Positions 13,992 through 48,349 of a stretch of 64,000 bases of DNA are shown piece by piece (the first letter of the stretch is position 1; each line of letters opens with the position of its first letter). Source of the DNA: Candidatus Woesearchaeota archaeon (GTDB taxonomy: Archaea > Nanobdellota > Nanobdellia > Woesearchaeales > JACPBV01); NCBI GenBank assembly GCA_019322475.1, contig JAHWIN010000011.1, positions 495 to 64,494 of the forward strand. The letters are read 5' to 3'. The notes under the pieces are model-generated. The model had not been told where the DNA came from. It saw only the letters and a list, made by a program, of their open reading frames with translations, and did no database searches. The position numbers and the translations under genes are program-made.

Positions 13992-14061
13992 ATAAACGAA
14001 AAGAGATAACATCTGGGCTATACCAGAACTATAAGATTAGAGGATCAGGCACACGATCAAA

Positions 14062-23518: not shown

Positions 23519-24694
23519 TTATATATCTTCAAACCCAGGAAGTTTATCGCCAGATCCATCGCTCTTATTTGTCTCTCCTGAGATCTCCTCTGCGCTTGAG
23601 CTGTCGACAACTACACTTTCCTCACCGCTATCAGGCTTGGCCACATCCTCTTTTTTCTCTGGCTCTTCTTCAATACCCTCTTCTTTCTTGTTCTCAGCCT
23701 CTTTCTTGAGCCTCTCTATCTCTTCCTTAGGGTCAGGCTTCGGAAAGACCCTGTTTGCTACAAACTCCAGCCTGTCAAAAAGCTCGTTCTTGCTTGTTCT
23801 CCCTATGACCTTTATTATGTTGCCAAGAAGGCTTGTTTTTACCTCTTCAAACCTCTCCGGATTATCCTTATACTCCAGTATCTTCTGCTGGTCCATCTCA
23901 AGGAGGTTTTCAGCCTGTCTCCTGAAAAATACAGCCCTTATGGATTCTGAGCCGTCATCTATTATAGCGTTCAATACATATGAATAAGCAGGCTCTACAG
24001 TCTGATGGCTCTCGCAGAAAAATCCTCCTTCCCTTTGCCTTACCCTTTTGTTGCACTCAGGGCAGACCTCAAAGAACCTTGGCTCAAATACCTGCAATAC
24101 TGTCCCGAGAAGCTCAACATCATTATCCTCTTCTTTAAGCTCGCTGATCTTCTTCCTTGTAGATGAATATGCCTTTACCTCCCCTAATGTCTCACCTTCA
24201 GGGTTTATCTCTATCTTGCTTCTGTCACCAAGATGGATCTCAGTCCTGTTGTTGTTCTCTCTCGTATATCCTGAGATTATCTTTACAACATCCCCTTCTT
24301 TTATGTCCTTTAAGGAATCTGTCTGTGATCCCCACATGACAACCCTTATAGAGCCCGTCTCATCTGCTATTACTATATTAGCGACCTTTCCCGGGCTTCC
24401 GTCCTTCCTTTGGAACTCAGTTATAGGATATGTCTGCTGGACCTTCCCTACAGTCTCAACATCCCTCATCCCCGCAAGTATGTTCTTTATCTGCAGCCTT
24501 GTGGCAGCAGCAGCCTCTTCTATAAGCTTTATCCCAAGGTCATTTGCAATTATATGCGCCGCTCCTTCTTCAGAGACAAGTCCTGAAAGCTGCTCCATCT
24601 TCTGCTTTATCTTAGAATTGATCTCATCTTCGCTCATCCCTGATTTCTCTTTTATCTTTTCAACGATCTGAGACAGAGGTATTTTTATCATCAT
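23519..24694 (-). CDS. replication protein A-like ssDNA-binding protein (OB folds plus Zn ribbon)
   Basis: 'ANIVIADETGSIRVVMW' is a typical RPA OB-fold segment and 'CPECNKRVRQREGGFFCESH' is a zinc ribbon. The C-terminal tail is acidic. Confidence 0.65.
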   Translation of the reverse strand: MMIKIPLSQIVEKIKEKSGMSEDEINSKIKQKMEQLSGLVSEEGAAHIIANDLGIKLIEEAAAATRLQIKNILAGMRDVETVGKVQQTYPITEFQRKDGSPGKVANIVIADETGSIRVVMWGSQTDSLKDIKEGDVVKIISGYTRENNNRTEIHLGDRSKIEINPEGETLGEVKAYSSTRKKISELKEEDNDVELLGTVLQVFEPRFFEVCPECNKRVRQREGGFFCESHQTVEPAYSYVLNAIIDDGSESIRAVFFRRQAENLLEMDQQKILEYKDNPERFEEVKTSLLGNIIKVIGRTSKNELFDRLEFVANRVFPKPDPKEEIERLKKEAENKKEEGIEEEPEKKEDVAKPDSGEESVVVDSSSAEEISGETNKSDGSGDKLPGFEDI

Positions 24695-24836: not shown

Positions 24837-26168
24837 TCAGGGCTCTATGGCTATCTGGGAGGAGCCCCTCTCACTCGGGGGTATATTCACCCTTTTGGCT
24901 ATTATCTCCTTCATCTCATTGCCTGCATCATCCTCTGCAGTAACTGCAAAATAATACCTGCCTTCAAACCCGTCTAGGAGTATATTATTCTCCCCCTTAG
25001 TAATCGGAATTTCCAGCTTATTCATCTGGCCTGTGCTGATAGGTGGTTTTGAAGGGCTGTCTTTACCCCCTATATTGATTATCTTCTTATAATAGACCTT
25101 ATAGCTTGAAGCATCAGAGGCATTGTTCCTCCATGTAAGATACCACCCATCCTCTCCTTTTTCCAAAAGATTCCCTTCTTCATCTGTTATTATCTCTGTG
25201 GCAGGAGGCTCAAAATCATCCTTGAACCTTAGCCCGTATTTGGCTATCATCTCCTTTTCATAATAAGGGTTTTCAAAGGAACCATCCTTTATTTTGACAA
25301 GTAATGTATAAGTCTTCTCAGGATAAAGCTTAGATTCTTCACCTGAAATAGCAGGGGCATCAGCTATAGGCACTATCGGGATTATCTCATAATCCTCGAT
25401 CCCCTCTACTCCATCTTCACCCTTGACCCCTTTTATTATCCTGTCCTTGTCAGAGCACACTATAAAATCATCGCCGTCATCAGCCTCATAGCTCCCTTTC
25501 TTAAGGCACTCGACAACACTTTCCTTTATCTCCTTAGCTTTTTCACCATACTCTTCAAATTTATCTATAAAATTATACCCTCCTTCATAGCTGAAAGAAG
25601 GCTTTAGCGAATAATCAGAATGCCCTTCCTCAGAACTCACTATCAGGTCCTGGGCTGCAATCCCGTTGACCATGATTGTATCTCCCTTATTCTCAAAGGT
25701 AAAGTCATAATTATCCAAAGGTATGGGAACAGCAGGATACGCCTTAAGGTACACATCAAGCTTCCTGTTGAGGAAATAAGAAAAGCCCACAGCAAGGTCC
25801 CTCTCTTCAGGATAGCACTCTGTCGTAATAGTGATCCCGCCCTCTTCACTTTCAAAAGTCTCCCAAAGGGAATATCCATCATCACCATACACATATTTCC
25901 CGCACTCACTATTATGGAACCCCCCATTGCTTCCAAGATCATAAACTGCATCATAAAATGCGTATTCTGCTGATTGGTCTATGTATTTTTTTATCTTAAT
26001 GGCATCATACATCAGTTTATAAGAGTCTAAAAAAACCTCTCCTATGAATTCTGTTTCTTTTGGAAGGTTTCTGGAACAATTCAATCCATAGAATAGCAAC
26101 AAGGATATTGCAAGGAAAAAAATTACAGGATAATACAATATCATTGCTCTTTTATTCAATACCATCAT
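24837..26168 (-). CDS. large secreted/anchored surface protein at the downstream end of the pilin-like operon
   Basis: N-terminal 'NKRAMILYYPVIFFLAISLLLF' hydrophobic anchor followed by a ~400-aa acidic ectodomain. Start is coupled to the upstream gene by a 4-nt overlap. Confidence 0.4.
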   Translation of the reverse strand: MMVLNKRAMILYYPVIFFLAISLLLFYGLNCSRNLPKETEFIGEVFLDSYKLMYDAIKIKKYIDQSAEYAFYDAVYDLGSNGGFHNSECGKYVYGDDGYSLWETFESEEGGITITTECYPEERDLAVGFSYFLNRKLDVYLKAYPAVPIPLDNYDFTFENKGDTIMVNGIAAQDLIVSSEEGHSDYSLKPSFSYEGGYNFIDKFEEYGEKAKEIKESVVECLKKGSYEADDGDDFIVCSDKDRIIKGVKGEDGVEGIEDYEIIPIVPIADAPAISGEESKLYPEKTYTLLVKIKDGSFENPYYEKEMIAKYGLRFKDDFEPPATEIITDEEGNLLEKGEDGWYLTWRNNASDASSYKVYYKKIINIGGKDSPSKPPISTGQMNKLEIPITKGENNILLDGFEGRYYFAVTAEDDAGNEMKEIIAKRVNIPPSERGSSQIAIEP

Positions 26169-26761
26169 GGGCCACTTGATTCTCCTAGCTCCTTTAATGT
26201 CTTTTCATATTTTGTTAGATTTCTCCCTGTCCCATGAGTTAAGTCTACTCCTATTAAAGGAACGCCCCTATCTGGATTGGGGGTTATAGCTCTGGAATAT
26301 CCTGCATCGCTTGAGATTATGCCCTCAGTAGAGCTTATCTGCACCTTAAAGCCTATAGATTCTAAGGTTAGGTATGTTTTCTTCCCCTTTTCAACCTCCT
26401 GTCTTTTAGATTCATCATATATCTTAAGGTTATAGTAATCACTCTCAAATATCTCGGTGGCTTTCTTTTCAAGCTCATGATAATTATCTTTATTAAAAGA
26501 ATCAACTATCAACTCACTAAAACTTTTCATCTCTCCGCCAGACTCAACCCTCGTTTCCAAAATCTCTATCATTTTTTGTTCTGCCTTAAGGTTATTCAAT
26601 TTGCCCCTTATTAGGATATGATCAGCCTTGTCTTTTGTCCTGCTGCGGACCCCCAGAAAAAGGACAATAGCTACAATTCCACAGACTCCAAACAAAAAAG
26701 AAGCAAGGTCATCAACTGCAATCCCCTTTTTTGACTTGAGTAGCTTATGCATTTTGCTCAC
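26165..26761 (-). CDS. pilin-like protein (class III signal peptide-like N-terminus)
   Basis: 'KSKKGIAVDDLASFLFGVCGIVAIVLFLGV' is a basic residue, Gly, then a hydrophobic helix. Overlaps the flanking genes. Confidence 0.4.
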   Translation of the reverse strand: MSKMHKLLKSKKGIAVDDLASFLFGVCGIVAIVLFLGVRSRTKDKADHILIRGKLNNLKAEQKMIEILETRVESGGEMKSFSELIVDSFNKDNYHELEKKATEIFESDYYNLKIYDESKRQEVEKGKKTYLTLESIGFKVQISSTEGIISSDAGYSRAITPNPDRGVPLIGVDLTHGTGRNLTKYEKTLKELGESSGP

Positions 26762-27266
26762 TTATTATCAGTTCCCCCCCTATTATTTCATTATTATAAG
26801 ATATATCCATCTTCATAGTTTTTCTTTTTGTGCTGATCTTCTCATCCCAATTCCTGCTTCTTATCACCTTGGGACCTATCTTTTTCTCTTTAGGAAGCTT
26901 AAGTTCCAGCTTAAACGCTATTTTTTTGCTTTTATCTCCTACATCATAGCATGAATGCAGGTTCTCTTCTGTAAATCTGCTAAATTCTATGGTTTTGGGA
27001 TTATTTATCCTGTCTAGAGCAAAGCAGTCATCAGAAAAGAACCTTTCGATATATGAAAATTCCTCTATCCCTTCTGGAATACTTGCACTACTTTCAACCT
27101 GGTTGTATATAGCCAACATAAAAATTATTAGCATGATACTTAGGGCTATGCCAAAAATAATGTAAGGGATTAATGAACCTCCAGGATAAAATGATATCCC
27201 TTTTTTATGCAGCTTCTTCATTTTCTTAACGTATCCGCCATAGCTAAACTTATAGGATCTATCCAA
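26745..27266 (-). CDS. pilin-like protein (class III signal peptide)
   Basis: The 'HKKGI' / 'SFYPGGSLIPYIIFGIALSIMLIIF' N-terminus. Confidence 0.4.
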   Translation of the reverse strand: MDRSYKFSYGGYVKKMKKLHKKGISFYPGGSLIPYIIFGIALSIMLIIFMLAIYNQVESSASIPEGIEEFSYIERFFSDDCFALDRINNPKTIEFSRFTEENLHSCYDVGDKSKKIAFKLELKLPKEKKIGPKVIRSRNWDEKISTKRKTMKMDISYNNEIIGGELIISEQNA

Positions 27267-28246
27267 TCAGGCTTAATAGTCTCTCCTGCCTCTTGGCCAG
27301 CATAATTATCAATCTCGATTACCATGGCTATCTTATCATTATCCAGCATGGGTTCACCATCCTGGGGAACCAACGCTGCTCCAGTAATCTTGCCTGATTC
27401 ATCATTCTTCAGGATGTTATTGATCATCAAGCACCCCATCTTCTTTATCTCCTCTTTTCTTGGGGATTTAGGGGAGAAGTATATCCTGATATTATTGCCC
27501 TCACTCTCTCTTTCCCCTACCTGTATCCTTATGACAGCATCTACACCACCCACTTTATCTTCCATCCTGCTTTCAGCTAAGCTTAGTGGATTATTGCCTA
27601 TATCCTCTATATACTCATTTCTTGCGTGCTCTGCCTTAATATCATTTCCTAGTCTGATCATAAATGAGGCTGCTATAAGGTTAGCCGCTTTCCCTTTTTC
27701 AATATCCTGGTCTTTGCCGATTCCAGAATCTACAAGGATACTTTTTATCTTTGGCTTTTCTGCAATCTCTTCACATTTAAGCCTTCTCAGGTCAGGCTTT
27801 TTTTCGCTTACTATTATCTCCCCTGCTATCTTTCCAACATACAGTTCTTTAGGCTTATTTATAACTTCAGTTAAAGGAGCATAATTAGAGCTTCCTGCAA
27901 AGGCATATGTAGATTCTGTAACATCATCAGCTGTAGAAGAAACACTCACAGTATAGTCCCTTATGATTATATCCATATTAGAGACATCCTCAGGATATTT
28001 GGTTATAGTATTGACCCCGTTAGGGACAAGATACATCTGTTCTATCATAAGCCCTATATCCTTTGCAGCCCTTATTTTAGGTATAGCATCACCATACCCA
28101 TAGCTGTAGGCTAATCCCTGGAACGTCAAGATAACGATAGCAGTCACTATTATTTCTATGCCCACCTTATAAAGTAGCTGCCCTCTTTTTGAGTTTACCC
28201 TTATCCTATCAAACCCAAAAAACCTCTTTTTTTCTTTGGTTCCCAC
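27218..28246 (-). CDS. pilin-like protein with a large globular domain (class III signal peptide)
   Basis: 'SKRGQ' followed by 'LLYKVGIEIIVTAIVILTF' matches the archaeal prepilin pattern [KR]G[QA]-hydrophobic. Confidence 0.45.
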   Translation of the reverse strand: MGTKEKKRFFGFDRIRVNSKRGQLLYKVGIEIIVTAIVILTFQGLAYSYGYGDAIPKIRAAKDIGLMIEQMYLVPNGVNTITKYPEDVSNMDIIIRDYTVSVSSTADDVTESTYAFAGSSNYAPLTEVINKPKELYVGKIAGEIIVSEKKPDLRRLKCEEIAEKPKIKSILVDSGIGKDQDIEKGKAANLIAASFMIRLGNDIKAEHARNEYIEDIGNNPLSLAESRMEDKVGGVDAVIRIQVGERESEGNNIRIYFSPKSPRKEEIKKMGCLMINNILKNDESGKITGAALVPQDGEPMLDNDKIAMVIEIDNYAGQEAGETIKPDWIDPISLAMADTLRK

Positions 28247-28247
28247 A

Positions 28248-29045
28248 TTAACCTTCTTCTTCCCCCTTATCCTCTGGAATGCATGTCTCTTTATAGCATA
28301 TCCCTGTTACGCCCTTGTATTTTTGTATATAAACCGCCCTGTTTCTTTGGTCAAATACGAGGGGGGAACTGGTGCTATGGAAAGATCCCTCACTGTCTGC
28401 TACCAGGGTATATCCCCAAAGGGCTATGCTCATCAATGTATTTTCTGCACTCTCCTTATTATATCTCTCAAAAGTAAAACCTCCCTTTAGGAAAAAATTT
28501 TGGTAAAAAGGCTTTACATCCATCTCTATATCTTTTAATGGAACATCCGATAAAAAATCAACATAATCCATACTCATGCATTTGGCTTTATGGTTGCAGA
28601 AAACCTCTTCAACACCGCCTATCTCTTCACCTTGCCATCCTTCCTGGCATAGGCAAACACATGCTTTCCTGTCTTCACAATTATCCGGCCGTTTAATTAC
28701 TATTGCTTTTTTATATCTGCCTGTAACACGCTCATAAGCCCCGATGCTTATCTCCTCAGAATACTTAGAAAATCCGTATATTGCAGTTCCTTTGTCCATT
28801 ATTAGGTTCATGCTTCTTGTACCGCCCTCTTCAGTCTCTTTTATCACTTCTATAAACCTGTTAAAAGACTGCTCTCCTCCGCTCGTCACCCTAAATAGTG
28901 ACTTTGCCAGGAATATTGCTGATAAGAAGAACAAGAGGGCTATGATTAGCCTTAGCAGGAACTCAGTCATAAGCCCTCTTCTTTTTTTTGCTATAGAAAA
29001 ATCTAAGATGCCTCTGCATTTTCTTGATTTTTTAGATGAACTCAT
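28248..29045 (-). CDS. cysteine-rich pilin-like protein (class III signal peptide)
   Basis: 'KKRRGL' followed by 'MTEFLLRLIIALLFFLSAIF'. The ectodomain contains the Cys cluster 'CEDRKACVCLCQEGW...CNHKAKC'. Confidence 0.45.
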   Translation of the reverse strand: MSSSKKSRKCRGILDFSIAKKRRGLMTEFLLRLIIALLFFLSAIFLAKSLFRVTSGGEQSFNRFIEVIKETEEGGTRSMNLIMDKGTAIYGFSKYSEEISIGAYERVTGRYKKAIVIKRPDNCEDRKACVCLCQEGWQGEEIGGVEEVFCNHKAKCMSMDYVDFLSDVPLKDIEMDVKPFYQNFFLKGGFTFERYNKESAENTLMSIALWGYTLVADSEGSFHSTSSPLVFDQRNRAVYIQKYKGVTGICYKETCIPEDKGEEEG

Positions 29046-29073
29046 TGTTTTTTAACACCAATCCATGTTTCTA

Positions 29074-29418
29074 TTAAGTTTTTTCTACTTCCTTTTTCTG
29101 AGGAGTTATACATTTTCTGTCTATGCTGGTAGGGTCTTTCTCATAATCTTCTAAATCCTTTTTACTGACACATCCCCCAAACTCGCTTACCCCTGGATCA
29201 CATGGGCATTTATCCACCATGTCAAGGATATTGTCTCCATCCCAATCCCCTATCAGGCTGTGCGCCTGTCTGGACTCTTTTCCTATAAGGCTGTTGAATA
29301 TCAGCAATAAGACAGTAGCAGTTACTAAAAGGATTGCTGCAACTATGACAACTGTCAATGACATCTCTATAGCTTTTTTATTCTTTCTCATTTTTACACC
29401 TCTCCTATATTCTCCCAA
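29074..29418 (-). CDS. small pilin-like protein (class III signal peptide)
   Basis: 'NKKAI' followed by 'EMSLTVVIVAAILLVTATVLLLIF', then a CxC-containing C-terminal domain. Confidence 0.45.
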   Translation of the reverse strand: MGEYRRGVKMRKNKKAIEMSLTVVIVAAILLVTATVLLLIFNSLIGKESRQAHSLIGDWDGDNILDMVDKCPCDPGVSEFGGCVSKKDLEDYEKDPTSIDRKCITPQKKEVEKT

Positions 29419-29440
29419 GTTCTATCTTTAATCTTGAACT

Positions 29441-30928
29441 CTAAGCCAATATCAGTTTACACTCCTTTGAGCCTTTCTCAGCGACAAAAAAGCTGTGTTT
29501 ATATTGTTTGTCTATGTTTACACATTCCTCCCTTGTAACGCTTGGAGTGATTCCAACAAACATATCCTTTGCCTCATCAAAAGAAGCGCAGTACCCCATA
29601 TCATCGATGCACCCTTCATCTATATTATCCACTAATTTATCATAAAATATAGCATAATGCGGCCTAAATGCCTCTATCAGGGTCAGAGAGCATTGCTTTC
29701 TTGTGACTATCCAGTTTCCATAAGCAGACGTTTTTTCTATAGTTTCCATAACATTTTCCTCAACCTTATCTATGTAACCTTCTTTTTTCCCATATCTGGC
29801 TAATTCTCTAAGTATCTTATCAGAGGGATTTAGCTTGCCGATCATAAAATAATTCCATAAGGCATGATAAGCTATACATATGCCTTCATCACTATCTTTT
29901 TTATCTTTTTCTTCTTTTAAGCTTTCATCTACTGCAAACTCAGTAAGCATAAGATTAAACTGGGTACACGGAGGCTCAAAGCTGAACCAGGGATTGTCTT
30001 TGTTTGTCCAGCCCTCCGAAGAGTCGCAGATGCAATTAGCCCCTTTAGAGGATTCACCTTCACAGAATAAGCTTTCTGCTTTGACGCATGGAGGATCAAA
30101 GCTTGCCCATGGCTCTTTCTCATTCACGCACCCTTCTTCTATGTTGCAGATTTGTTTTCCATCCTTCATTACCTGGCAGTATTTTTTAGTGCATTCCCTC
30201 CCATTCTCAGTTCTTGTTTTCATATCATTGTTATCAAAACCATGCAGGCCTGGGATATAACCAACACCATAGGTCTTTCCAGTTTCAGGATCGATCACCC
30301 GGTCATCAGTAAAGAAACAGGCAAGATTTTCCCCTTCAGGCTTGTACAATGCAGGATACTTTGGAAAAAGATAATAAGGATTTGTATTTCCAAAATATAT
30401 TGCATTTCTTTTTTTGATTTCTGCCCTTTCCAACTTAGCATATTTAGCGACTATATCATCATCTTTATCAGGGATGGCTATGCAGGGCATTATCCCCTCA
30501 ACAAAATGATCAGCGACACGCTGTTTTTTAACATTAAGCAGCCTCATGTTCGTCCCTTTTTTTTCCTCAACATACTCAAGTTCTATTGTATACTCCTTCA
30601 TTTCTAAAGTGCCATAGCCGGAAAAGCAGTCATTATCCTCTTTGCATAAGGCAAACGCTTCATATAAGCTGTCAAATATGTTTTTAATCTCCTCTGGAAC
30701 AGCCTCTTCCGGAGAAATCTCCTTTTCATATCTCCCGGGCAAAAATCTTTCAAAGCCCTTAGCTGCTTCCGCCGCCCTGGGTATAAGCCCTCCAGAAGAA
30801 AAAAATATGCCTCCTATGATAATAAAGACTATTAGTAAGATGGAGATTGTCATAACAGTCCCTGAAATGGCTTTTTTATTCATTAAACTTAACCCCTCTA
30901 CACCACTTGCTTCTCCAATAAATAACAA
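29441..30928 (-). CDS. large cysteine-rich pilin-like/adhesin protein with internal W-x-SF-[DE]-PPC repeats
   Basis: N-terminal 'NKKAI' followed by 'SGTVMTISILLIVFIIIGGIFF'. The ectodomain repeats 'KEPWASFDPPC' and 'DNPWFSFEPPC' between Cys-rich segments. Confidence 0.45.
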   Translation of the reverse strand: MLFIGEASGVEGLSLMNKKAISGTVMTISILLIVFIIIGGIFFSSGGLIPRAAEAAKGFERFLPGRYEKEISPEEAVPEEIKNIFDSLYEAFALCKEDNDCFSGYGTLEMKEYTIELEYVEEKKGTNMRLLNVKKQRVADHFVEGIMPCIAIPDKDDDIVAKYAKLERAEIKKRNAIYFGNTNPYYLFPKYPALYKPEGENLACFFTDDRVIDPETGKTYGVGYIPGLHGFDNNDMKTRTENGRECTKKYCQVMKDGKQICNIEEGCVNEKEPWASFDPPCVKAESLFCEGESSKGANCICDSSEGWTNKDNPWFSFEPPCTQFNLMLTEFAVDESLKEEKDKKDSDEGICIAYHALWNYFMIGKLNPSDKILRELARYGKKEGYIDKVEENVMETIEKTSAYGNWIVTRKQCSLTLIEAFRPHYAIFYDKLVDNIDEGCIDDMGYCASFDEAKDMFVGITPSVTREECVNIDKQYKHSFFVAEKGSKECKLILA

Positions 30929-31105
30929 GTCTTGTTTCTATCTCAATCTTAATCTATTTCCACCCAAAAAACCGGTTTACTATGCCTATTATCTGCTCCC
31001 TCAATCCTCCATAAAAAAATAGTATAAAGATGGCAAATAAAAATAATAGCGCCCACCATATCACTTTTTCCCATGGAAGCGCCAAAGCGCCTTTTTTATC
31101 TTTCA

Positions 31106-32125
31106 TTATTCACCACTAATATCTGATTGTATATCACAAAGGCCTTCAACATCATTCAGCCGTGAGATAAGTATAGCGTTTGTTACTTCTTCCGGATAAG
31201 GGTCACTCTTCCACAAAAATCTTCTTAGATCCCCAAATAGGGCAGTCTTTGATACATATGTTATTGCATACGTCTCTTCCAATGGCCTAAAATCTTCGAT
31301 GCCTTCAACATCAATGATTGCCTTGCCTTCCCCTTCATACTCTTGGATATACCTTTCATAACTTAAAAAATTATTTTCCTCTATGCAGCATTTCTCTCCC
31401 TCGCTTCCCTTGCATGACCATCCTTTATATTCTTCCAGCCCCTCGCCACATTCATCACTGCATACCCCCCCTTTATTTAAGCACTCTACTTTTTTATTGC
31501 AGCATACCTCTTTTTTTATCTCTCCATCCACCTTTTTGCTCGGGCATCTGCTGGATGGTGTTTCTTTTTCATCGCTTTCACACACCTCTCTGCACCAGCC
31601 CCCTCCTTGTATATTGCATTTGTTGCTCTTATCTATCACGATATGCTGGGTATCCTGAAGAAACTGCTTTAATCCTGTAGCAGAAAAAGATCCTACATCC
31701 TTGTTTATGTTGAAATCATAGCATATAAAGCATTTCTTTTCTCCTGTCCATGTAGTCCCGAACATATCATCTTTTGTCCCTTCCAGCCACATCCACCAGC
31801 ATCTGGCTGCCAGATCCCCTATCTCCATCATGGCCCCCTCAGTCTCATCCCCTGTATACTTTACATAACCTGGATCAGGTACATCTTTATGGATAATTTT
31901 GCATGTCCTTGGAGCCAGGTTAAAAAGGGTAAATCCGAACTTCTCAACCTCTGTTTTTGTCCTAAGTGCGTTAAAGCCCCTGCATAGCTGTTCAGATGTT
32001 GCTGCTTCTGCCTTGGAAAAAAACATCCCATGTAGGTTTACGATCATAAGCGCAGAAAAAAGCAGGATGGTAGTGGATACAATAAACTTCATCCCCAGGG
32101 CTTTCTTATTTCGACCTGATAACAT
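31106..32125 (-). CDS. secreted cysteine-rich protein (possible pilin/adhesin)
   Basis: N-terminal 'NKKAL' followed by 'GMKFIVSTTILLFSALMIV'. A dense Cys block 'CREVCESDE...CCNKKVECLNKGGVCSDECGEG...CKGSEGEKCC'. Confidence 0.4.
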   Translation of the reverse strand: MLSGRNKKALGMKFIVSTTILLFSALMIVNLHGMFFSKAEAATSEQLCRGFNALRTKTEVEKFGFTLFNLAPRTCKIIHKDVPDPGYVKYTGDETEGAMMEIGDLAARCWWMWLEGTKDDMFGTTWTGEKKCFICYDFNINKDVGSFSATGLKQFLQDTQHIVIDKSNKCNIQGGGWCREVCESDEKETPSSRCPSKKVDGEIKKEVCCNKKVECLNKGGVCSDECGEGLEEYKGWSCKGSEGEKCCIEENNFLSYERYIQEYEGEGKAIIDVEGIEDFRPLEETYAITYVSKTALFGDLRRFLWKSDPYPEEVTNAILISRLNDVEGLCDIQSDISGE

Positions 32126-32434
32126 TAATTATCCCCCTTAACATTAAGAAGAAAACTACTGTAAGGAATAATGCCACTATAATCTTAAATAAGTCCGCTG
32201 ACAGACCCTTCTTCCACCTCATCATCCTACTCTCGAAAACCATAGTCATCTACAGGCGTAATTTCTATTTAAATCTTTTGAATCCTCCCGAAGAAAACAG
32301 TCCATTCTTTAAAAAAAAGCTCTGCATATAATCCATCCTCTGGCAGGCATGATGCTCAAAACACCATATAATCAAGCTAAGATCCTTCATAAAAACAGTT
32401 AACCTTAAATAAAAGTACATACTTAGTACGTATT

Positions 32435-33214
32435 ATGCAGAAACTGGTATTCAGGAAAAAAGTATCTAAAGGAAGCAGGTTTAATCAGATATATATCCCC
32501 AAATGCCTTGAAAACAGGATATCAGTGGGGGATGAGGTAGAGGTAAGGCTGGTAAAAAAGCATATAGGCCTTTACTATTCCAGGGGATTAGGAAAATTGT
32601 CCGCTTTCAAGGAGAACCTGATAAGGGACATCTTCTCTTTCCTGGAAAGTTTCGATAAGATCCTGAACATATTTGTAGTAGGCTCATTTTTATCCATGAA
32701 GATAGATTACAATGACATAGACATAGTTATAATAACTGAAGAGAGGGAAGATGGCATCGAAGAGCAGGTTTATGGCAAGCTTATAGATAAGTTCAACCTA
32801 AAGTTCCATATCCTCAATATAGGGAGGAAAAAGCTGGAATACCTGCTTAAGGCCTGCCCCCTGACCAGGGCCATGTTCAGCCTTTATGTCAGCAATAAAG
32901 ACGTCAATTTAGAAAAAAAGAAAATAATCGATAAAAATCATCTAAGCTTTTTGCTTATGATGCCCGAAGACCTGCTTGAGATAAGGCTAAGCAGCAGGGT
33001 CTTTTTCGATAACCTAAGGAGGTTGATAGTTATTGAAATGTTTTTAGATGATAAAAGTTTAGAGCTAGAGGATGTAAGCTCGGAATTAAGCGATTTGATA
33101 GGTAAAAGGCTATACCAAAGGATGAAAGATAACCTGGAGGTAGAAGAGAGGGTTGTTGGAGATATGAGGGCTGTCATAAAGGCAAAGCTGATAAGGATAA
33201 GAAAGATGATCTAG
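32435..33214 (+). CDS. nucleotidyltransferase-domain protein with an N-terminal AbrB/SpoVT-like domain
   Basis: 'QIYIPKCLENRISVGDEVEVRLV' resembles a swapped-hairpin AbrB-like barrel. 'VVGSFLSMKIDYNDIDIVII' is the minimal-NTase GS...D.D motif. Confidence 0.5.
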   Translation: MQKLVFRKKVSKGSRFNQIYIPKCLENRISVGDEVEVRLVKKHIGLYYSRGLGKLSAFKENLIRDIFSFLESFDKILNIFVVGSFLSMKIDYNDIDIVIITEEREDGIEEQVYGKLIDKFNLKFHILNIGRKKLEYLLKACPLTRAMFSLYVSNKDVNLEKKKIIDKNHLSFLLMMPEDLLEIRLSSRVFFDNLRRLIVIEMFLDDKSLELEDVSSELSDLIGKRLYQRMKDNLEVEERVVGDMRAVIKAKLIRIRKMI

Positions 33215-33220
33215 ATTAAG

Positions 33221-33538
33221 ATGGGGAAAAAAGGCGATATAGACCAATTGGCCAATATAATGTCAAGGGCATTAAGGCATAAGATAGGCTCGATAGTCAA
33301 CAAGGACGAGTTCTACGCTGAAAGATACTCAAGAGATTCTGAAAACCTTATGAAAGAGGCTGAAAAGGTCCTGGACAGAAGAAAATGGAACAAGGAGGAT
33401 AAGGCAGATATCAGGGAAAGATTGAAGGAGAAGCTGCTTAAAGAGCTGAAAGAAAAGGATTTTCTTGACCAAAAGAAATTTGATATCATGGATGAAGAGG
33501 CGGATAAGGCTTTAGAAAGGTTCGGGTTGATGCCTTGA
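33221..33538 (+). CDS. hypothetical charged helical protein (possible partner of the upstream NTase)
   Basis: 105-aa Lys/Glu-rich protein, 7 nt downstream of the NTase gene. Confidence 0.3.
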   Translation: MGKKGDIDQLANIMSRALRHKIGSIVNKDEFYAERYSRDSENLMKEAEKVLDRRKWNKEDKADIRERLKEKLLKELKEKDFLDQKKFDIMDEEADKALERFGLMP

Positions 33539-33540
33539 TA

Positions 33541-33798
33541 TCATCCAACACAACACGCGCTCTCAGGCTCATCGCAGTCAGACCAGCCCCCTTCCTTGGG
33601 AGTAATCTCATTGCCCGAATAAGGCTTGCAGCAGTAGTTCGTAGTCCCTGAAATCCTGCATACGTTTACAGAAGAGCTTTGCTCTGTCTTTTTAACATTC
33701 TCTTCAAAATTAGCCATCCAGGAAAAGATAAGCACAGCGACAATGACAAGGACTACTATAGAAAAGATAGTTGTCTTAGAAACACCTCTATTGTCCAT
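33541..33798 (-). CDS. small cysteine-containing pilin (class III signal peptide, 'CCKP' motif)
   Basis: 'NRGVSKTTIFSIVVLVIVAVLIF' prepilin-like N-terminus. The C-terminal domain has 'YCCKPYSG' and a terminal 'ACC'. Confidence 0.5.
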   Translation of the reverse strand: MDNRGVSKTTIFSIVVLVIVAVLIFSWMANFEENVKKTEQSSSVNVCRISGTTNYCCKPYSGNEITPKEGGWSDCDEPESACCVG

Positions 33799-33827
33799 TT
33801 TAAATAAAAAAAGAAAAAATAAAAAGA

Positions 33828-34223
33828 TTAGCAGTCGTTTTTATCTATGGTTGTCCATATGCATCCTGCATGTTCTGGAGATTCGCATGCTGTCCTATCA
33901 TTGCTGAAAACACCGCAGTCCTTTCCATCATCTCCATAAGTTTCAGTGCATGCCTCTGCTTTTGTAGGCTTGCAGCAGATCTCTCCTGCAGTGACGTCTG
34001 AGAATTGCCCGTATACCCTTAGGCATATAGAGCTGCACCCTTCAATCTCGCTCTTTACCAGACCGTTAGCCTCAGCGCATGTCCCTCCTTTCGTGACATC
34101 AGAGACGCCCTTGCTGAAGACCCCCATCCTGCCTGTAAATACAGCCCATAGGACCACCAGCACGATAAGGACTATAGCTGCTATTATTATCGTGTTCAGG
34201 CTCAATCCTTGTCCCTTTTTCAT
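33828..34223 (-). CDS. small cysteine-rich pilin (class III signal peptide, 'CCKP' motif)
   Basis: 'MKKGQ' followed by 'GLSLNTIIIAAIVLIVLVVLW' is a textbook archaeal prepilin N-terminus. The ectodomain has ten Cys including 'EICCKPTKAE'. Confidence 0.55.
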   Translation of the reverse strand: MKKGQGLSLNTIIIAAIVLIVLVVLWAVFTGRMGVFSKGVSDVTKGGTCAEANGLVKSEIEGCSSICLRVYGQFSDVTAGEICCKPTKAEACTETYGDDGKDCGVFSNDRTACESPEHAGCIWTTIDKNDC

Positions 34224-34324
34224 AATTATGCACCTCTTTGTTTATTCTAAATGCTGATTATACCTTATAACTATTGTATGTTATATTTAAAACTTTCGGG
34301 TCGTGCTTAAAAAACAGCATTATT

Positions 34325-34819
34325 TTAGCATATGTCTATAGACAGATAAAGTATCTTTTCACCGGAAGCGTCTATAGGTATGGGGTCTGTCTTATGCTTC
34401 TTTTCCCCCGGGCATCCTCTTTCGCTTTTCACATCGACTATTGTCGCCTCCTCCGCCCTTGCCTCAAAATCATAATTTATGTGCCATTTTTCAAGCGTTT
34501 GGTTAAGTATATCCTTCGTCATCTCATTTATATACTGGCAGGAGCTTTTCCCGCCCCTGCACATAACCTGCGGATTCTCATGATCCCTCCCGCAGTCTTT
34601 ATAGAGCTCTTTTATGCTCATCCTGTGGGTGCTGCAGTTCTCTGTAGTTGTTCCCATAAGGGTGCTTAAGATGTTGGAGGCAATCTCAGTCTGCGTATAC
34701 CCTTTTTTGTACTCAAAAGGCTCTTTTAGCATTATGAACCTGATAGCAAAAAGCATGATTATTGATATCAGTATGACTATTATAGCGAGCCCCATTATCT
34801 CCATCTGTGCTTTTTTCAT
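34325..34819 (-). CDS. pilin-like protein (class III signal peptide)
   Basis: 'MKKAQ' followed by '[19 protein letters not shown]'. The globular domain carries eight Cys. Confidence 0.5.
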
Positions 34820-34918
34820 ATTATAGCAAGCGACACAAATTTTTATACAATATACAGGTCACTTGCTTATTACTAAAAGACAAGATTTGTTCAAAAACTT
34901 TTCTTTTAGTATAATCGT

Positions 34919-35422
34919 TCACTTTTTATAAAATTCTATGGCCAGGATCCCAAAGCCGATATCCTCTGAAGTTCCGTTGAATAAGGAGACAGGTATGAAT
35001 GTTGAAAGCCTGTTCGAATAGTTTGCCATGGTGCCGTTATATAATATCCACATTTTTTTTTCTGGAAATATCTCTTCAACCCATATCCTGCTGGACTCAA
35101 AAACATCGTAATAATATATGTTGTTTTCCCTTACAGTCCCGGAAGCGGCCTCCAGCTTCATGATGTCTATGCACCCCTCTGTTATTATGTTCTCTCTGGA
35201 GCATTGAAGCTCAGGAAGGAATGAAGCCTTCTGCGCTGCCTGTATGGCCTCCAGCTGGATGTTCTCCTCCATCTCCGTCTTTGAAGACCCGCTTATGACA
35301 TTCATGTAGAAGACAAAGCCGAACATTACAAATACTATGAAGATGAAGAGTATGGCCACGGATTCGCCCATCTGTATCTGTGCTTTTTCATCCTTCATTT
35401 TTTTCAGTAGATAAGTGTGCAT
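34919..35422 (-). CDS. pilin-like protein (class III signal peptide)
   Basis: 'DEKAQ' followed by 'IQMGESVAILFIFIVFVMF'. Confidence 0.45.
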   Translation of the reverse strand: MHTYLLKKMKDEKAQIQMGESVAILFIFIVFVMFGFVFYMNVISGSSKTEMEENIQLEAIQAAQKASFLPELQCSRENIITEGCIDIMKLEAASGTVRENNIYYYDVFESSRIWVEEIFPEKKMWILYNGTMANYSNRLSTFIPVSLFNGTSEDIGFGILAIEFYKK

Positions 35423-36465
35423 GAGTGCAGCTTTGCCAGGTTGTTTGCGCTTCCCTCTTCCCCGCTTATGTCCTTTGCAGCATCCTTTATGTCATCCATA
35501 TCCTCCTGACTAGTGCCTGGAAAATCAGAAGCCATCTTTTCTGATCCTTCCTTTATGGTTTCTATGCCTGTTATTGCATGGTCATATGCAGTTGAGCAAT
35601 GGCTATTTCCTGCATATACCACTTTCATCCTGGACGACCTGTTAAGGTAAACCCTGCTTACCAGGCTTAGTTTTCTGAAAGCCTTCCTCATCACACAGTC
35701 ATACATCTCCTTGTCTTCTGCAAATATCGCCCCAAATAAGCTTTCTTCCTTTAGGTAATGGCTTTTTCCCTCTGATCTCCACTCTGCCCCGTTCTTTTCC
35801 AGAAACTCTATCGTTCCTGTAGGCTCTATAAGGCTTGAATCCTTCAATGTAGTAAGATTGGCTGCTGTTAAGCTTTCATCATCCATCCCGCTAAGCTTTT
35901 GCAGTATGGCATCAGCATTGGAATTGCCCAGCAGTATTACCTTGACCTTATAGTTGTTCTTGTCTATCAGGCTGCCAAGCTCTGCTTCTGTAGTTAATTC
36001 CTTGTTCATCTCCTTTGGCAGCTTATCATAGATCCTCTGCCCCAGCCCCTCATTGTTGTCGACTATTATATACCTTAGCTGAGGATCTGTAAGATAAAGG
36101 AAGTTGGTTGCCCTGTAAGGCACGTTCCAGTCCAGTGCCCAGGTTATCATCTCTTTGCCCTTCAATACCCCTGGAGAGAATATAACATTGCCCCTTGTCG
36201 ATTTTGGGCTCACCCCTATAAAGTACCTGTTGCACTCAAATCCTATGTCAATGTTAGGCAGGTCTATGATATTGACGGTATTCATGGAAGCCTGGGCCCC
36301 CGTAAGCAGGGACTCAAGCTTTGTGACTATGCTTCCTTCAGTCCTTACTTCAGAGAATTCCCTCTGTTTATTGACAACATTTATGAAGAATATGAATATG
36401 ACAGCCCCCGCTATAAGTATGAATATCCAGTTGAAATGTACCTCTATCATGCCTCTTTTTTCCAT
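35404..36465 (-). CDS. large pilin-like protein (class III signal peptide) at the head of the five-gene pilin sub-cluster
   Basis: 'MEKRG' followed by 'MIEVHFNWIFILIAGAVIFIFF', then a 320-aa globular domain with no nucleotide-binding motif. Confidence 0.45.
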   Translation of the reverse strand: MEKRGMIEVHFNWIFILIAGAVIFIFFINVVNKQREFSEVRTEGSIVTKLESLLTGAQASMNTVNIIDLPNIDIGFECNRYFIGVSPKSTRGNVIFSPGVLKGKEMITWALDWNVPYRATNFLYLTDPQLRYIIVDNNEGLGQRIYDKLPKEMNKELTTEAELGSLIDKNNYKVKVILLGNSNADAILQKLSGMDDESLTAANLTTLKDSSLIEPTGTIEFLEKNGAEWRSEGKSHYLKEESLFGAIFAEDKEMYDCVMRKAFRKLSLVSRVYLNRSSRMKVVYAGNSHCSTAYDHAITGIETIKEGSEKMASDFPGTSQEDMDDIKDAAKDISGEEGSANNLAKLHSCTLIY

Positions 36466-36614: not shown

Positions 36615-37211
36615 TTAGATATTCTTATTTTTTGCAGGCGCCTTTTTCCTCTTAGGCATTGCCTTTTCATCGGCTTTCCCGCTTTTATCTTCTTTGCCCT
36701 TTTTTGCCTTATCTTCAGCTACAGCATCCTTTTTGATTTCTTTCTTCTGGATGCCCTTAGCTTCTTTTACAGGCTTTTTCTTTTCCTTAGCTTCTGTTTT
36801 CCCGCCCTTTTTCTTCTCTTCAGAAACATCATTCTGGCCTTCCTTTTTTCCCCTTATCCTTCTTGGCCTTTCTCCTTTCTCCTTTCTCTTTGTTTCCCAC
36901 ACAGGTATATTCAGTTTGTCGAATTCCTTCTTGACATCCTCATGAGAAGCCCCTTTTTTGATATCTATCTTCCTTGAGGTAGGCTCCAGATGCAGCATAT
37001 TGCATTTCCTCCTCCTGACATTGCCGTCTATAAGAACATGATTGTTGTCTAAGATTTCCAGAATTACAGCCTCTCTGCCTGCATCCCTTCCGCATGTCTT
37101 TATGCAGATCCTTCCTGTTTCCATCATTTTTAGTTCCTCCGGTCTCTCTGTATATGGGCATAGTTGCCTTATTGCCCTGGAGACTTCATTCCTTTCTTGC
37201 CTTTTCGACAA
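36615..37211 (-). CDS. rpl14e: ribosomal protein eL14 (KOW) with a lysine-rich C-terminal extension
   Basis: 'GRICIKTCGRDAGREAVILEILDNNHVLIDG' is the L14e KOW core. The C-terminal ~100 aa are K/E-rich. Confidence 0.7.
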   Translation of the reverse strand: MSKRQERNEVSRAIRQLCPYTERPEELKMMETGRICIKTCGRDAGREAVILEILDNNHVLIDGNVRRRKCNMLHLEPTSRKIDIKKGASHEDVKKEFDKLNIPVWETKRKEKGERPRRIRGKKEGQNDVSEEKKKGGKTEAKEKKKPVKEAKGIQKKEIKKDAVAEDKAKKGKEDKSGKADEKAMPKRKKAPAKNKNI

Positions 37212-37455
37212 ACAATGATTTCATGCATCTGCCGCATAGCGCTCCGCCATAAGGCCTGTTCACCTTCTTCCTGCTTTTGGCCATCTTCTTCATCTTATAA
37301 GGCCTCTCTCTGGCTATTCCTGGAAGTACAGCACCGCATTTTCCGCACTTGGCAGCCTTGGGCTTCCTGTGCTTGTAATGGGTTGTAGTCCTGCCTCCGG
37401 GAGTTTTTACACATATCCTCCTTAAAGACCTTGATCTTTTTCTTGGTTGCGGCAT
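37186..37455 (-). CDS. rpl34e: ribosomal protein eL34
   Basis: 'VKTPGGRTTTHYKHRK' and 'CGKCGAVLPG...CGRC' form the zinc-binding eL34 pattern. Confidence 0.7.
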   Translation of the reverse strand: MPQPRKRSRSLRRICVKTPGGRTTTHYKHRKPKAAKCGKCGAVLPGIARERPYKMKKMAKSRKKVNRPYGGALCGRCMKSLFVEKARKE

Positions 37456-37470
37456 TTTACTTTCACAAAT

Positions 37471-38217
37471 CTAGTACACTTTAAAAAGCTTTCTTAATGC
37501 TATGCTGAATATGATTGATAACAGGATATATGTCCCAAGCCATCCAAGCTTCCATCCAAAAAGGTTAAGCACCTTTATCTTGTTGTTGTCTACGCTTATC
37601 TGCTTTACGGTCTTGTCCTTGACCTGTTCTATGGGCTTGCTGTATTTCTGTTCCTCATTTATCGTAAGCTCTTTTGTATAGCTTTTATGGCCTATATTGT
37701 ACTCAAGAAGGTATTCTCCCTCCTCTCCTTTTAGTATCCATTTCGTTTCCCCGTCGCTTATGGTCTTGTTTAGCTCCCCATCACTTTCTATGCCGTTGGG
37801 AAGAACAAGCTCAACATCCCCCTTCACATTTTCATAAAAAGACATGGTTGTTGTAAACTCCTGGCTGGGCCTTATAGGAGAATACGCAAGGTTTGCATTC
37901 ATCCATCCGAATATCAGTATTATCGGTATAAATGTAAAAAGCATGGACCTCATAGAATGGGTCATGTATTTCATGTTCGTCTGCATGGCTTTCTTCTGGA
38001 CCTGCATCATCTTTTGGGGCTCGCTCCTTAGCTCCTTCATCTCTTTCTGCAGCTCCTTCATCTCTCCCTTGAGATCCTTCATAAGGCTCTGGTTGGTGGT
38101 GTACTTATAGATGGCTGTTATCAGTACAGTTATCAAAAAAGCCATTATGACTACCACCCAGAGAATAGGCAGTTTTAGTAATGGGTCAAATATTGGGCTT
38201 AATATACCTTCTAGCAT
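37471..38217 (-). CDS. DUF106-family membrane protein (archaeal Oxa1/YidC/EMC3-like insertase)
   Basis: TM1, then a coiled-coil 'MKDLKGEMKELQKEMKELR', then TM2 and TM3. It lies immediately downstream of secY as in other archaea, and has an extra ~90-aa C-terminal domain. Confidence 0.55.
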   Translation of the reverse strand: MLEGILSPIFDPLLKLPILWVVVIMAFLITVLITAIYKYTTNQSLMKDLKGEMKELQKEMKELRSEPQKMMQVQKKAMQTNMKYMTHSMRSMLFTFIPIILIFGWMNANLAYSPIRPSQEFTTTMSFYENVKGDVELVLPNGIESDGELNKTISDGETKWILKGEEGEYLLEYNIGHKSYTKELTINEEQKYSKPIEQVKDKTVKQISVDNNKIKVLNLFGWKLGWLGTYILLSIIFSIALRKLFKVY

Positions 38218-38241
38218 TTTATATTATACCTCTTTTTTGTT

Positions 38242-39648: not shown

Positions 39649-39649
39649 T

Positions 39650-40102
39650 TTACTTGGGAGGCTTTGCCTCTTCTTTTTTTATGCTGCTCAAGATGACCTC
39701 TCCGCCAGCCTTTTTGACTTTCTCTACAGCATTTTTAGATGCACTTTCGACCTTTATCTTTAGTTTGGAATCGATTCTGCCCCTTCCTAGGAGCTTGCCA
39801 TACCCTAATTTCCCCAGGTCGATGAGGTTCCCTTCCTTCAGGAAGATTTCAGGATGTTCACATATGAGATCGAGATTGACAGCTTTTGCCTCTTTCCTTG
39901 CGCCTTTGGTCTTGAACCCGTGCTTTCCGAAATATTTCTTGTCCTTCCAGTATCTTGGCTTCATGGCATCTCCCCTTTTTCCGCTGCCTGCCATGCCTCT
40001 TCCGCCTCTGCTTCCGGCACCCCTGTGCTTTTTCTTGCTGCCCCATCCGTGGGTATGTGTGCCTCTCTGCCTGCTGAATTTCTTTCTTTTGTTGATTGTC
40101 AT
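39650..40102 (-). CDS. rpl15: ribosomal protein uL15
   Basis: The Gly/Arg-rich N-terminus 'THGWGSKKKHRGAGSRGGRGMAG' is typical of L15. Confidence 0.85.
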   Translation of the reverse strand: MTINKRKKFSRQRGTHTHGWGSKKKHRGAGSRGGRGMAGSGKRGDAMKPRYWKDKKYFGKHGFKTKGARKEAKAVNLDLICEHPEIFLKEGNLIDLGKLGYGKLLGRGRIDSKLKIKVESASKNAVEKVKKAGGEVILSSIKKEEAKPPK

Positions 40103-40534
40103 TTAGATCATCCTTTTCAATAGGTCATTGATCTTATCTCCCCTGTACCCCAATGCCCCGTGGGACTTGAACCCCACTTTTATGCCTTTTCTTCCGAAAC
40201 CCTTTTTAGGGGGGCTGAGCCTGAAGAAAGGCTTGATCTTCTTTCCGTCGATAACTATAAACTTAGAGTCATACTTTATCCTGCCTTTCCTGTCTTCACC
40301 CCTTCCTTTGAATTCTTCCCCTCTTTTTTCCACTACCTCTTTATGCATCTCATCGCTTATCTCCCCATAGGTTACAAAGTCCTTGACCTTGTTGATCATG
40401 CCTTTATAGGTAGGATTGTCCTCTACTATAGTGCAGTAATTCTTCCTGTACAGTCTTAAAAGGGTTAAGGTGTCCTTGATGTCTCCCTTTACGTTTATGG
40501 ATCCTCTAACCCTTACTATTGCTATCTTGCTCAT
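40103..40534 (-). CDS. rpl30: ribosomal protein uL30
   Basis: 'IAIVRVRGSINV' and 'TLLRLYRKNYCTIV' are L30 signatures. Confidence 0.8.
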   Translation of the reverse strand: MSKIAIVRVRGSINVKGDIKDTLTLLRLYRKNYCTIVEDNPTYKGMINKVKDFVTYGEISDEMHKEVVEKRGEEFKGRGEDRKGRIKYDSKFIVIDGKKIKPFFRLSPPKKGFGRKGIKVGFKSHGALGYRGDKINDLLKRMI

Positions 40535-42251: not shown

Positions 42252-42268
42252 TTTTTATCGTTACGCCC

Positions 42269-42841: not shown

Positions 42842-42869
42842 TTTATCTTCACTGCATCTGCATGCCTTT

Positions 42870-43430: not shown

Positions 43431-43476
43431 CTGGTTTTGATCATCAGGTGCATATTTGTCTTGCAGCCCCCTGTTT

Positions 43477-43866: not shown

Positions 43867-43875
43867 TTTTTGACC

Positions 43876-44106: not shown

Positions 44107-44108
44107 TA

Positions 44109-44618: not shown

Positions 44619-44619
44619 T

Positions 44620-46547: not shown

Positions 46548-46561
46548 TTTTTCCTCATGCT

Positions 46562-48345: not shown

Positions 48346-48349
48346 GTTT

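Follow-up and report, generated by a model that had tools for sequence, protein, structure and literature searches.

Fifteen pilin-like genes of a woesearchaeal locus as candidate subunits of a proposed filament-like organelle directed at bacterial cell walls

What does an archaeal cell build from fifteen clustered genes whose products all begin like type IV prepilins, when no gene for the assembly of a pilus lies beside them? The question arises from positions 24837..36465, minus strand, of a 64,000-nucleotide stretch of contig JAHWIN010000011.1 from a Candidatus Woesearchaeota archaeon; this whole stretch of 64 kb is referred to as the window. Our answer, which we hold with moderate confidence, is that these genes specify the building blocks of a type-IV-filament-like organelle that is particular to this lineage, acts on bacterial cell walls and depends on machinery encoded elsewhere. 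No description of this cluster was found in literature searches.

All thirteen minus-strand open reading frames (ORFs) listed here in an initial annotation exist. Re-reading of the gaps at a lower ORF cut-off gave two small genes that had been overlooked, at 32106..32249 (47 aa) and 30954..31106 (50 aa), whose products start with the same pattern. Each overlaps its neighbours and has an orthologue at the corresponding place in relatives, which brings the cluster to 15 genes. They form two tightly coupled minus-strand units, module A (g13-g12-g11-g10-g9, 36465 to 33541) and module B (s1-g8-s2-g7-g6-g5-g4-g3-g2-g1, 32249 to 24837), split by two plus-strand genes at 32435..33538. The operon-like coupling described earlier is thus seen, although it is broken once. 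From g13 to g1 the genes are:

35404..36465, minus strand: g13, 353 aa, first gene of module A, a large conserved pilin-like protein with the leader MEKRG and then MIEVHFNWIFILIAG
34919..35398, minus strand: g12, 159 aa from the ATG at 35398, a small pilin-like protein, MKDEKA/QIQMGESVAILFIF
34325..34819, minus strand: g11, 164 aa, a small pilin-like protein
33828..34223, minus strand: g10, 131 aa with 10 cysteines (Cys), candidate major subunit, MKKG/QGLSLNTIIIAAIVLIVLVVLW
33541..33798, minus strand: g9, 85 aa with 6 Cys, small and g10-like, MDNRG/VSKTTIFSIVVLV
32106..32249, minus strand: s1, 47 aa, first gene of module B, a mini-protein of Flp/EpdE size, MMRWKKG/LSADLFKIIVALFL (WKKG/LSADLF)
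31106..32125, minus strand: g8, 339 aa with 18 Cys in a Cys-rich ectodomain, NKKA/LGMKFIVSTTILLF
30954..31106, minus strand: s2, 50 aa, MKDKKG/ALALPWEKVIWWALLF (KDKKG/ALALPW)
29441..30883, minus strand: g7, about 480 aa from the ATG at 30883, 19 Cys, MNKKA/ISGTVMTISILLIV
29074..29391, minus strand: g6, 105 aa from the ATG at 29391, g10-like N-terminus and a DxDxDG-type motif, MRKNKKA/IEMSLTVVIVAAIL
28248..29045, minus strand: g5, 265 aa with 9 Cys, AKKRRG/LMTEFLLRLIIALLFF after a 24-residue leader
27218..28246, minus strand: g4, 342 aa, C-terminal half Amidase_3-like with the zinc (Zn) ligands lost, NSKRG/QLLYKVGIEIIVTAIV
26745..27221, minus strand: g3, 158 aa from the ATG at 27221, MKKLHKKG/ISFYPGGSLIPYIIFG
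26165..26752, minus strand: g2, 195 aa from the ATG at 26752, MHKLLKSKKG/IAVDDLASFLFGV
24837..26168, minus strand: g1, 443 aa, end of module B, with about 170 aa of conserved scaffold at the N-terminus, MMVLNKRA/MILYYPVIFF

A class III signal is defined by a hydrophilic basic leader that ends in a small residue and is followed by about 21 hydrophobic residues, often with a Glu near +5; the small residue is Gly, with Ala or Ser tolerated in archaea (PMC4471445). All 15 proteins of the window have a short, basic leader with a small residue at its end, and each has a single strongly hydrophobic N-terminal segment with [KR][GA] immediately before it (for example NKKA/IEMSL). The prepilin-type N-termini proposed earlier for twelve of the genes are thereby confirmed. 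The remaining one, g1, had been described as having an anchor only, but its NKRA/MILYY conforms to the pattern as well, and KK[GAS]/Q-type motifs are plain to see in the orthologues of g1.

Relatives of g13 are encoded in 260 GTDB species. Related loci were taken from 80 of these species representatives and from four exact-match look-ups, giving 84, with L085 added later as the 85th, and their ORFs were assigned to the families of the window by iterated hidden Markov models (HMMs). Across about 80 species, [KR][GAS] stands before the hydrophobic tract in at least 90% of the orthologues for 13 of 14 families, including all 79 g13 orthologues with a transmembrane (TM) segment, 31/32 of g5, 29/29 of g3 and 27/28 of g2; g7 is the exception with 18 of 27. 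As a control, opposite-strand proteins outside the cluster that start with a hydrophobic segment were taken from the same loci, and 12 of 58 (21%) carry the motif. Its presence in 15 of 15 proteins and its conservation among orthologues, against 21% in the controls, therefore mark the pattern as a conserved, selected feature.

The residue at +1 is Q in 66/67 g12, 68/69 g11 and 79/92 g10 members, and Q is also commonest in g4 (12/32); Szabo et al. are said to have described Q at this position in 2007 as characteristic of EppA substrates. An acidic residue is found at +2..+6 in most members of g13 (65/79), g12 (66/67), g11 (68/69) and g2 (20/28), and in only 9/92 members of g10. In archaea, the acidic residue near +5 of type IV pilins is often absent.

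Several true starts are probably internal ATGs, leaving leaders of 4-10 residues; with the most plausible start codons, only g4 (22 residues) and g5 (24 residues) have longer ones. The small genes are also kept in relatives, in that an ORF of 40-72 aa with the motif directly precedes g8 in many related loci and s2 has 19-21 orthologues by HMM, all with the motif. In the window, s1 overlaps g8 by 20 nt. The earlier remark on Cys-rich members is borne out, the richest having 19, 18, 10, 9, 6 and 6 Cys.

The hydrophobic tracts, with one 19-residue window per protein of mean Kyte-Doolittle value 2.0-3.2, continue into long helices of the alpha-1 type in the structures that were modelled. In the AlphaFold2 models of g13 and g12, for which deep alignments were used, the first element is a helix of 56-57 residues; alpha-1 of pilins has about 50 (PMC8179133). 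In g13 (predicted local distance difference test score, pLDDT, 93) the helix at 3-59 is followed by a beta domain at 64-238 and a helical bundle at 239-346, and in g12 (pLDDT 87) six beta strands and two short helices come after the helix at 4-59, four of the strands forming a C-terminal run. In 54 aligned homologues of g10 the first 35 residues or so, [KR][GAS]Q-GLSLNTIIIAAIVLIVLVVLWAIFTGRMG.F, are near-invariant, and the remaining 45-95 residues are hypervariable except for three Cys; there are 1-3 tandem copies per locus. Because of the near-invariant N-terminus, the hypervariable Cys-containing C-terminus and the tandem paralogues, g10 is the likely major subunit. A constant N-terminus with a free-running C-terminus would, as a sequence profile, fit a polymerisation interface. 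Profile-profile comparison shows the families to be alike only across the N-terminal 30-90 columns, as in pilins, and the likeness of g6 to g10 (97% probability by hhalign) is confined to the N-terminal region.

The order of the genes is conserved as well. Of the distinct loci, 43 extend for at least 8 kb downstream of g13. The whole series through g1 is present in 27 of these, colinearly in 26; in eight others module A stands by itself with unrelated genes after it, and the last eight are truncated or partial. g11 adjoins g13 and g12 in 73 of 84 loci. In 11 of the 27 complete loci, RPA follows directly after the series. The same layout is found on OZ246410.1, a chromosome-level record of 774 kb. 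Credible lineage labels of the carriers are Woesearchaeota, Nanoarchaeota or Nanoarchaeia only, and the cluster is vertically conserved. Dozens of carriers (L006, L007, L011, L015, L016, L059 and others) are metagenome-assembled genomes of the binchicken set titled 'uncultured Methanosarcinales archaeon', and one is titled 'Dehalococcoidales bacterium'; these titles are probably placeholder or wrong taxonomy.

In most relatives, three extra genes lie directly upstream of g13. They encode a protein of about 400 aa with a KSQ-type pilin-like N-terminus, a giant of 1000-3100 aa two genes from g13 with a Sec-type signal, bacterial Ig-like domains and thrombospondin-type-3 (TSP3) repeats (as in L003 3486..9491, L062 1499..9511 and L020 4196..9295), and, in most relatives directly before g13, a protein of about 160 aa with K[KS][AS]Q and then a hydrophobic helix. 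The trio is not beside g13 in the genome of the window. Because the C-terminal part of the family of about 160 aa is encoded at the start of the window, we conclude that the upstream module has been displaced by about 35 kb here, and it probably continues beyond the contig start.

2..337, plus strand: C-terminal fragment of the pilin-like family of about 160 aa, truncated where the window begins; matched by an HMM made from 52 upstream neighbours (E 7.4e-28)

TSP3 repeats may also have a counterpart inside the cluster. Residues 48-83 or so of g6 contain a DWDGDNILDMVDKCPCDPG stretch that resembles these calcium-binding repeats, with a weak NCBIfam match to TraB (E 0.007), and TSP3_bac, the same type of repeat, is significant in the giants. 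We considered whether the giants are the published SLT giants of related archaea, but the three that were scanned carry Ig-like domains and TSP3 repeats and no SLT. A further protein of 260-610 aa, about 600 aa at full length (for example L003 18811..20625 and L075 19218..20993), is encoded between g1 and RPA in many relatives; it has an N-terminal TM segment but neither the K-G/A motif nor a Pfam match, and it is not in the window.

An indication of what the apparatus might act on comes from g1 and g4 of sister species. g1 has a scaffold of about 170 residues (leader, helix and conserved domain) to which the sister species append differing murein hydrolase domains. A Pfam scan of 24 orthologues gave VanY in 10, Peptidase_M15 in 9, SLT in 3 (best 1e-29), Amidase_2 in 1 (1.5e-26) and fn3 in 2, with single matches to glucosaminidase, phage lysozyme (Phage_lysozyme2), a 3D domain and a tip-attachment Ig domain. 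These domains begin at residue 170-245, as in SLT at 175-307 (L065), VanY at 225-328 (L003) and M15 at about 230-323 (L034). That unrelated classes of murein hydrolase are swapped at one fixed position of one scaffold suggests that selection at this slot acts on murein cleavage itself. Three of 12 orthologues of the long form of g4 matched Amidase_3 (best 7.6e-13), a domain that spans residues 185-352 in L043. Long orthologues of g5 and g7 were scanned with Pfam for grafted modules, and nothing beyond one borderline SLT was found.

The copies in the window are different. After the scaffold, neither the C-terminal 270 aa of g1 nor its closest relative has a domain recognisable by Pfam; by eye this region was judged FN3-like, which Pfam did not confirm. 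g4 aligns over its full length with the L043 protein (E 2e-14), but its Zn ligands are lost (GHGG to GIG and MHVGE to IQVGE), so that this domain is at best binding or regulatory. A modular-pilin layout, with an N-terminal pilin module and an unrelated domain, is thus present in orthologues of g1 and g4, and in the window there is a degenerate g4 domain only.

Several results weigh against a pilin-type organelle. The models of g13 and g12 match no solved pilin fold; the earlier suggestion that 35404..36465 (g13) might show an adhesin, lectin or Ig-like fold likewise ended without a match to any solved fold. No curated pilin model matched in Pfam, with all 15 proteins and the family alignments as queries, or in NCBIfam, with 10 proteins; the models covered included PF04021, PF07790 and PF01917 and the pilin N-terminal models of NCBIfam. 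A lone Arch_flagellin match was obtained among the 54 g10 homologues (E 0.04). Sequence profile searches of the PDB with the g1, g4, g8, g10, g12 and g13 families gave nothing significant, and the sole match of g10 is the N-terminal helix of an archaeal 'flagellin-like' filament subunit, 8rey_M, at a non-significant E of 0.3. In addition, neither g1 nor g4 of the window has a demonstrable active hydrolase. Lastly, no T2SE/FlaI-type ATPase, TadC/FlaJ/PilC platform protein or A24 peptidase is encoded in the 64-kb window, as had been noted before for the ATPase and platform, or within 10 kb on either side in the 85 related loci. With no curated-model, solved-fold or significant PDB match, membership in a known pilin family is not established, and what is established is a pilin-type N-terminal architecture. 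The description of the locus as a dedicated set of pilins and adhesins holds to that extent.

The search for machinery covered all Walker-A proteins and all proteins with at least five TM segments in the window and 84 loci, and candidates were scanned with Pfam. In the window, the Walker-A proteins are RadA/KaiC-like and UvrD-like, and the polytopic ones are SecY, a glycosyltransferase-type membrane protein, an M48 peptidase, a CTP-transferase-family protein and a 6-TM protein. Taken together, the candidates were RadA/KaiC-like, UvrD, SMC-like, Na/H exchanger, ZIP, Vut_1, M50-like and LPG-synthase proteins, none of them T2SE, TadC or A24. One 6-TM protein of 255 aa at 60586..61353 (minus strand) was considered as a prepilin peptidase and rejected, having no GxGD motif and no Pfam match (E 0.001); it carries an HHLAGH motif and may be a divergent M50-like membrane protease. 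Type-4-filament systems with ATPase and platform ('system 1', Aap-like and 4A) are present in some DPANN archaea (10.64898/2026.04.22.720090), and a nanoarchaeal ATPase was found in 2016 without identifiable cognate pilins (PMC4858521). No report of prepilin peptidases in Woesearchaeota was found in our literature search.

The initial statement that most of the proteins lack recognisable homology is correct for Pfam and NCBIfam, but uncharacterised homologues are abundant. g13 has 224 homologues, every one a hypothetical protein of Woese- or Nanoarchaeota, and the g12 family comprises 1282 representatives of 50%-identity clusters. g8 has invariant Cys columns across 37 orthologues, and this family has no Pfam or PDB match by its profile and a lone Flp1_like match (0.0086) among 37 homologues. 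In the NCBI records, 35404..36465 (KY358_01455), 34919..35398 (KY358_01450) and 33828..34223 (KY358_01440) are all named hypothetical protein.

These gaps are what the most serious rival explanation draws upon. The proteins could be uncleaved signal anchors, N-in and C-out, of a lineage-specific envelope or host-contact complex that forms no filament, and the motif would then reflect the positive-inside rule together with family conservation. The missing pilin family or fold match and the missing peptidase, ATPase and platform genes in every neighbourhood agree with this, the number of genes is unusually large, and the ectodomain of g12 is weakly similar to Cache/PDC sensor domains, which likewise follow a TM helix. 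Against it, the motif is found in only 21% of the control proteins with an N-terminal TM segment. Nor would plain anchors be expected to retain a near-invariant Q directly behind the small residue, or to conserve an acidic residue within the helix's first turn, and the conservation profile of g10 is left unexplained. We judge this explanation rather unlikely on balance.

A filament or pilus could also serve the cell itself. The apparatus might remodel a murein-like wall of its own envelope, or mediate pilus adhesion, DNA uptake or motility, with the hydrolases being housekeeping enzymes or irrelevant here. Bacteria use dedicated lytic enzymes that help to assemble trans-envelope machines, and the lack of a hydrolase domain in the window's g1 and the catalytically degenerate amidase-like domain of its g4 are in line with this. 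Archaea normally lack murein, however, and the exchange of unrelated hydrolase classes at one position implies selection for murein cleavage. The murein hydrolases of Woese- and Pacearchaeota have been proposed to target bacteria (PMC8204110, PMC9723730, PMC12352652). A purpose within the cell's own envelope, or one in which the hydrolases play no part, is improbable in our view.

It is very doubtful that the N-termini are standard (class I) Sec signal peptides and the proteins simply secreted. A basic n-region and a hydrophobic region are common to all Sec signals, but the class I pattern of a 7-15-residue hydrophobic region followed by an AxA-type site is not matched by these proteins. Their tracts are at least 19 residues long at the hydropathy given above and extend as long helices in both models, and the conserved residues precede the hydrophobic region instead of following it. 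A provirus, tailocin-like or other mobile element, for which one may cite the single orthologue matches to Phage_lysozyme2 and the tip-attachment Ig domain and the two foreign-looking genes inserted at 32435..33538, is barely credible given that no relative was found in 2.9 million viral contigs, that at least 11 loci share the position beside RPA and 26 show the colinear series, that the GC content of the cluster equals that of its flanks, and that no integrase, capsid or terminase is present.

We return to the type-IV-filament-like organelle with subunits encoded here. From the patterns above we infer cleavage, polymerisation, roles for the subunits and, for this organism, a bacterial target, in the following way. 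Each protein would enter the membrane via Sec, and a prepilin-type peptidase encoded elsewhere would remove the basic leader of 4-24 residues after [KR][GAS]. The freed hydrophobic N-terminal helix would then act both as membrane anchor and as polymerisation interface. g10, or possibly the Flp-sized s1 and s2, would polymerise through the conserved helix, and g13, g12 and g11 together with the protein of about 160 aa would form an always-linked core, possibly a priming, tip or cap complex. Module B may supply accessory modular pilins with Cys-rich ectodomains (g8 and g7) and with domains that bind or cleave cell walls, of which M15/VanY, SLT or amidase domains that look active are borne by the g1 scaffold in sister species only. 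The giant Ig/TSP3 protein that relatives encode next to the cluster is a possible adhesin. Such an organelle would fasten the cell to bacteria, whose murein it would bind or digest locally.

A stronger form of this proposal can be stated, which is tentative and which we consider possible at most. The locus would encode a dedicated, vertically inherited organelle of 15-20 pilin-like proteins, a filament or pseudopilus with hydrolase-bearing modular pilins, which grapples bacteria and opens their walls locally, and hence a parasitic or predatory apparatus of an archaeon on bacteria. In its boldest version there is no canonical PilB/PilC/PilD and assembly takes another route.

A set of proteins with class III signals is in itself a known category. 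What sets this one apart is that it is large, has no machinery genes beside it, shows no similarity to known pilin families and includes hydrolase-bearing members. The Epd pili of Methanococcus maripaludis and 'system 1' (10.64898/2026.04.22.720090; PMC4858521) are alike in that one multigene locus combines many different proteins with class III signals, in very short candidates for the major pilin (here 47-131 aa), in stand-alone or tandem pilin paralogues and in a K-G/A-Q type junction, with the +1 Q dominant in g12, g11 and g10. In contrast to them, the window and the neighbourhoods of its relatives have no EppA, no clade-1 ATPase and no two platform genes, and no sequence membership in Epd pilin families can be demonstrated. 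There are 15-20 pilin-like genes here and 11 genes, machinery included, in the Epd cluster, and the murein hydrolase modules are a further difference.

The modular pilins PilB/PilC of Streptococcus sanguinis combine a class III pilin module with a grafted functional module that the filament presumably displays (PMC8179133), and the g1 and g4 families share this layout. In the present case, read from sequence, the host is an archaeon and the modules are murein hydrolases (M15/VanY, SLT, Amidase_2/3) instead of adhesins; a survey of bacterial modular pilins predicted only S74 and M26 peptidases as enzymatic modules (PMC8179133). Minor pilin or pseudopilin complexes, such as GspH-I-J-K of the type II secretion system and FimU-PilVWX of type IVa pili, also have about four co-encoded pilin-like proteins beside the gene of the major subunit and one large member with an extra helical domain, comparable to g13 with its beta domain and helical bundle. 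This is a resemblance of layout only, with no sequence or fold similarity detected.

In terms of the proposed role, the closest functional analogue is found in the type IV pili of Saccharibacteria and other members of the candidate phyla radiation, where an ultrasmall, host-dependent cell locates and binds a bacterial host (PMC9894109, PMC11623550). Those pili have bacterial machinery with clear PilB/C/D genes, and no hydrolase-bearing pilins have been described for them. The giant murein transglycosylases of Woese- and Pacearchaeota and 'module 98' (PMC8204110; PMC9723730) share the lineage and the inferred target, bacterial murein, with the present locus. The SLT giants reach 3000 aa and are treated as free extracellular enzymes, unlike the proteins of 350-800 aa here with pilin-like N-termini and a fixed operon position. 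The 51 families of module 98 are lineage-specific and unannotated, as are the families here, which possibly are part of that module of Castelle et al. 2021. The bindosome of Sulfolobus offers another comparison: class III signals are found there on sugar-binding proteins, which assemble at the surface with the aid of a type-IV-filament-type ATPase and a membrane protein, and the Bas genes are known. It is similar in that class III signals occur on functional surface proteins that are not filaments, but the lineage is another, the function is substrate binding, and nothing comparable to the Bas genes was identified here.

Upstream of the cluster there is a block with ribosomal-protein, SecY, EMC3-like, L34e and L14e genes (36615..51559), and downstream an RPA-like single-strand-binding protein (23519..24694) and a YdjM-like membrane protein. 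The two genes that split the modules are:

within 32435..33538, plus strand: Pol-beta/NTP_transf_2-like nucleotidyltransferase, 259 aa, by weak Pfam matches
within 32435..33538, plus strand: charged protein of 105 aa, an ORF beside the nucleotidyltransferase-like gene

The pair may be toxin-antitoxin-like. It occupies the same position in L005, the closest GTDB relative, with 68% and 73% identity, and the insertion is therefore stable in the sublineage. Further off, a membrane-anchored thioredoxin-like protein (HyaE-family match, E 4.5e-05) at 2268..2984 on the minus strand adjoins glycosyltransferases; that it serves disulfide formation in the Cys-rich ectodomains is pure speculation. A biotin carboxylase of 627 aa was assigned by Pfam at 10442..12325. 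Other ORFs in 6752..16028 were assigned by ORF size and position alone as carboxyltransferase, acyl-CoA dehydrogenase-like and ETF-like. Such a set would agree with the report of bacterial-type genes of lipid metabolism in Woesearchaeota (PMC8204110).

The cluster is real, widespread and experimentally tractable, and concrete targets are at hand: g10 as a subunit, g13-g12-g11 as a core, and the hydrolase modules. Nanoarchaeota stand out for their peptidoglycan hydrolases, enzymes the majority of which, over all archaea, have no recognised signal peptide (PMC12352652); pilin-type N-termini may explain why it appears to be missing on many. In groundwater that is the source of many such genomes, cryogenic transmission electron microscopy has shown pili from ultrasmall cells that reach into hosts, the cells being unidentified (PMC7906910). 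The locus could unite three separate observations, namely these pili, the murein hydrolases of Woese- and Pacearchaeota and the large lineage-specific protein sets. If the proposal is true, it would also address the gap noted in 2016, that of nanoarchaeal secretion ATPases without identifiable pilins. Among uncultured archaea, Woesearchaeota and their relatives rank with the most abundant, and this locus could help to explain how they make contact with other cells.

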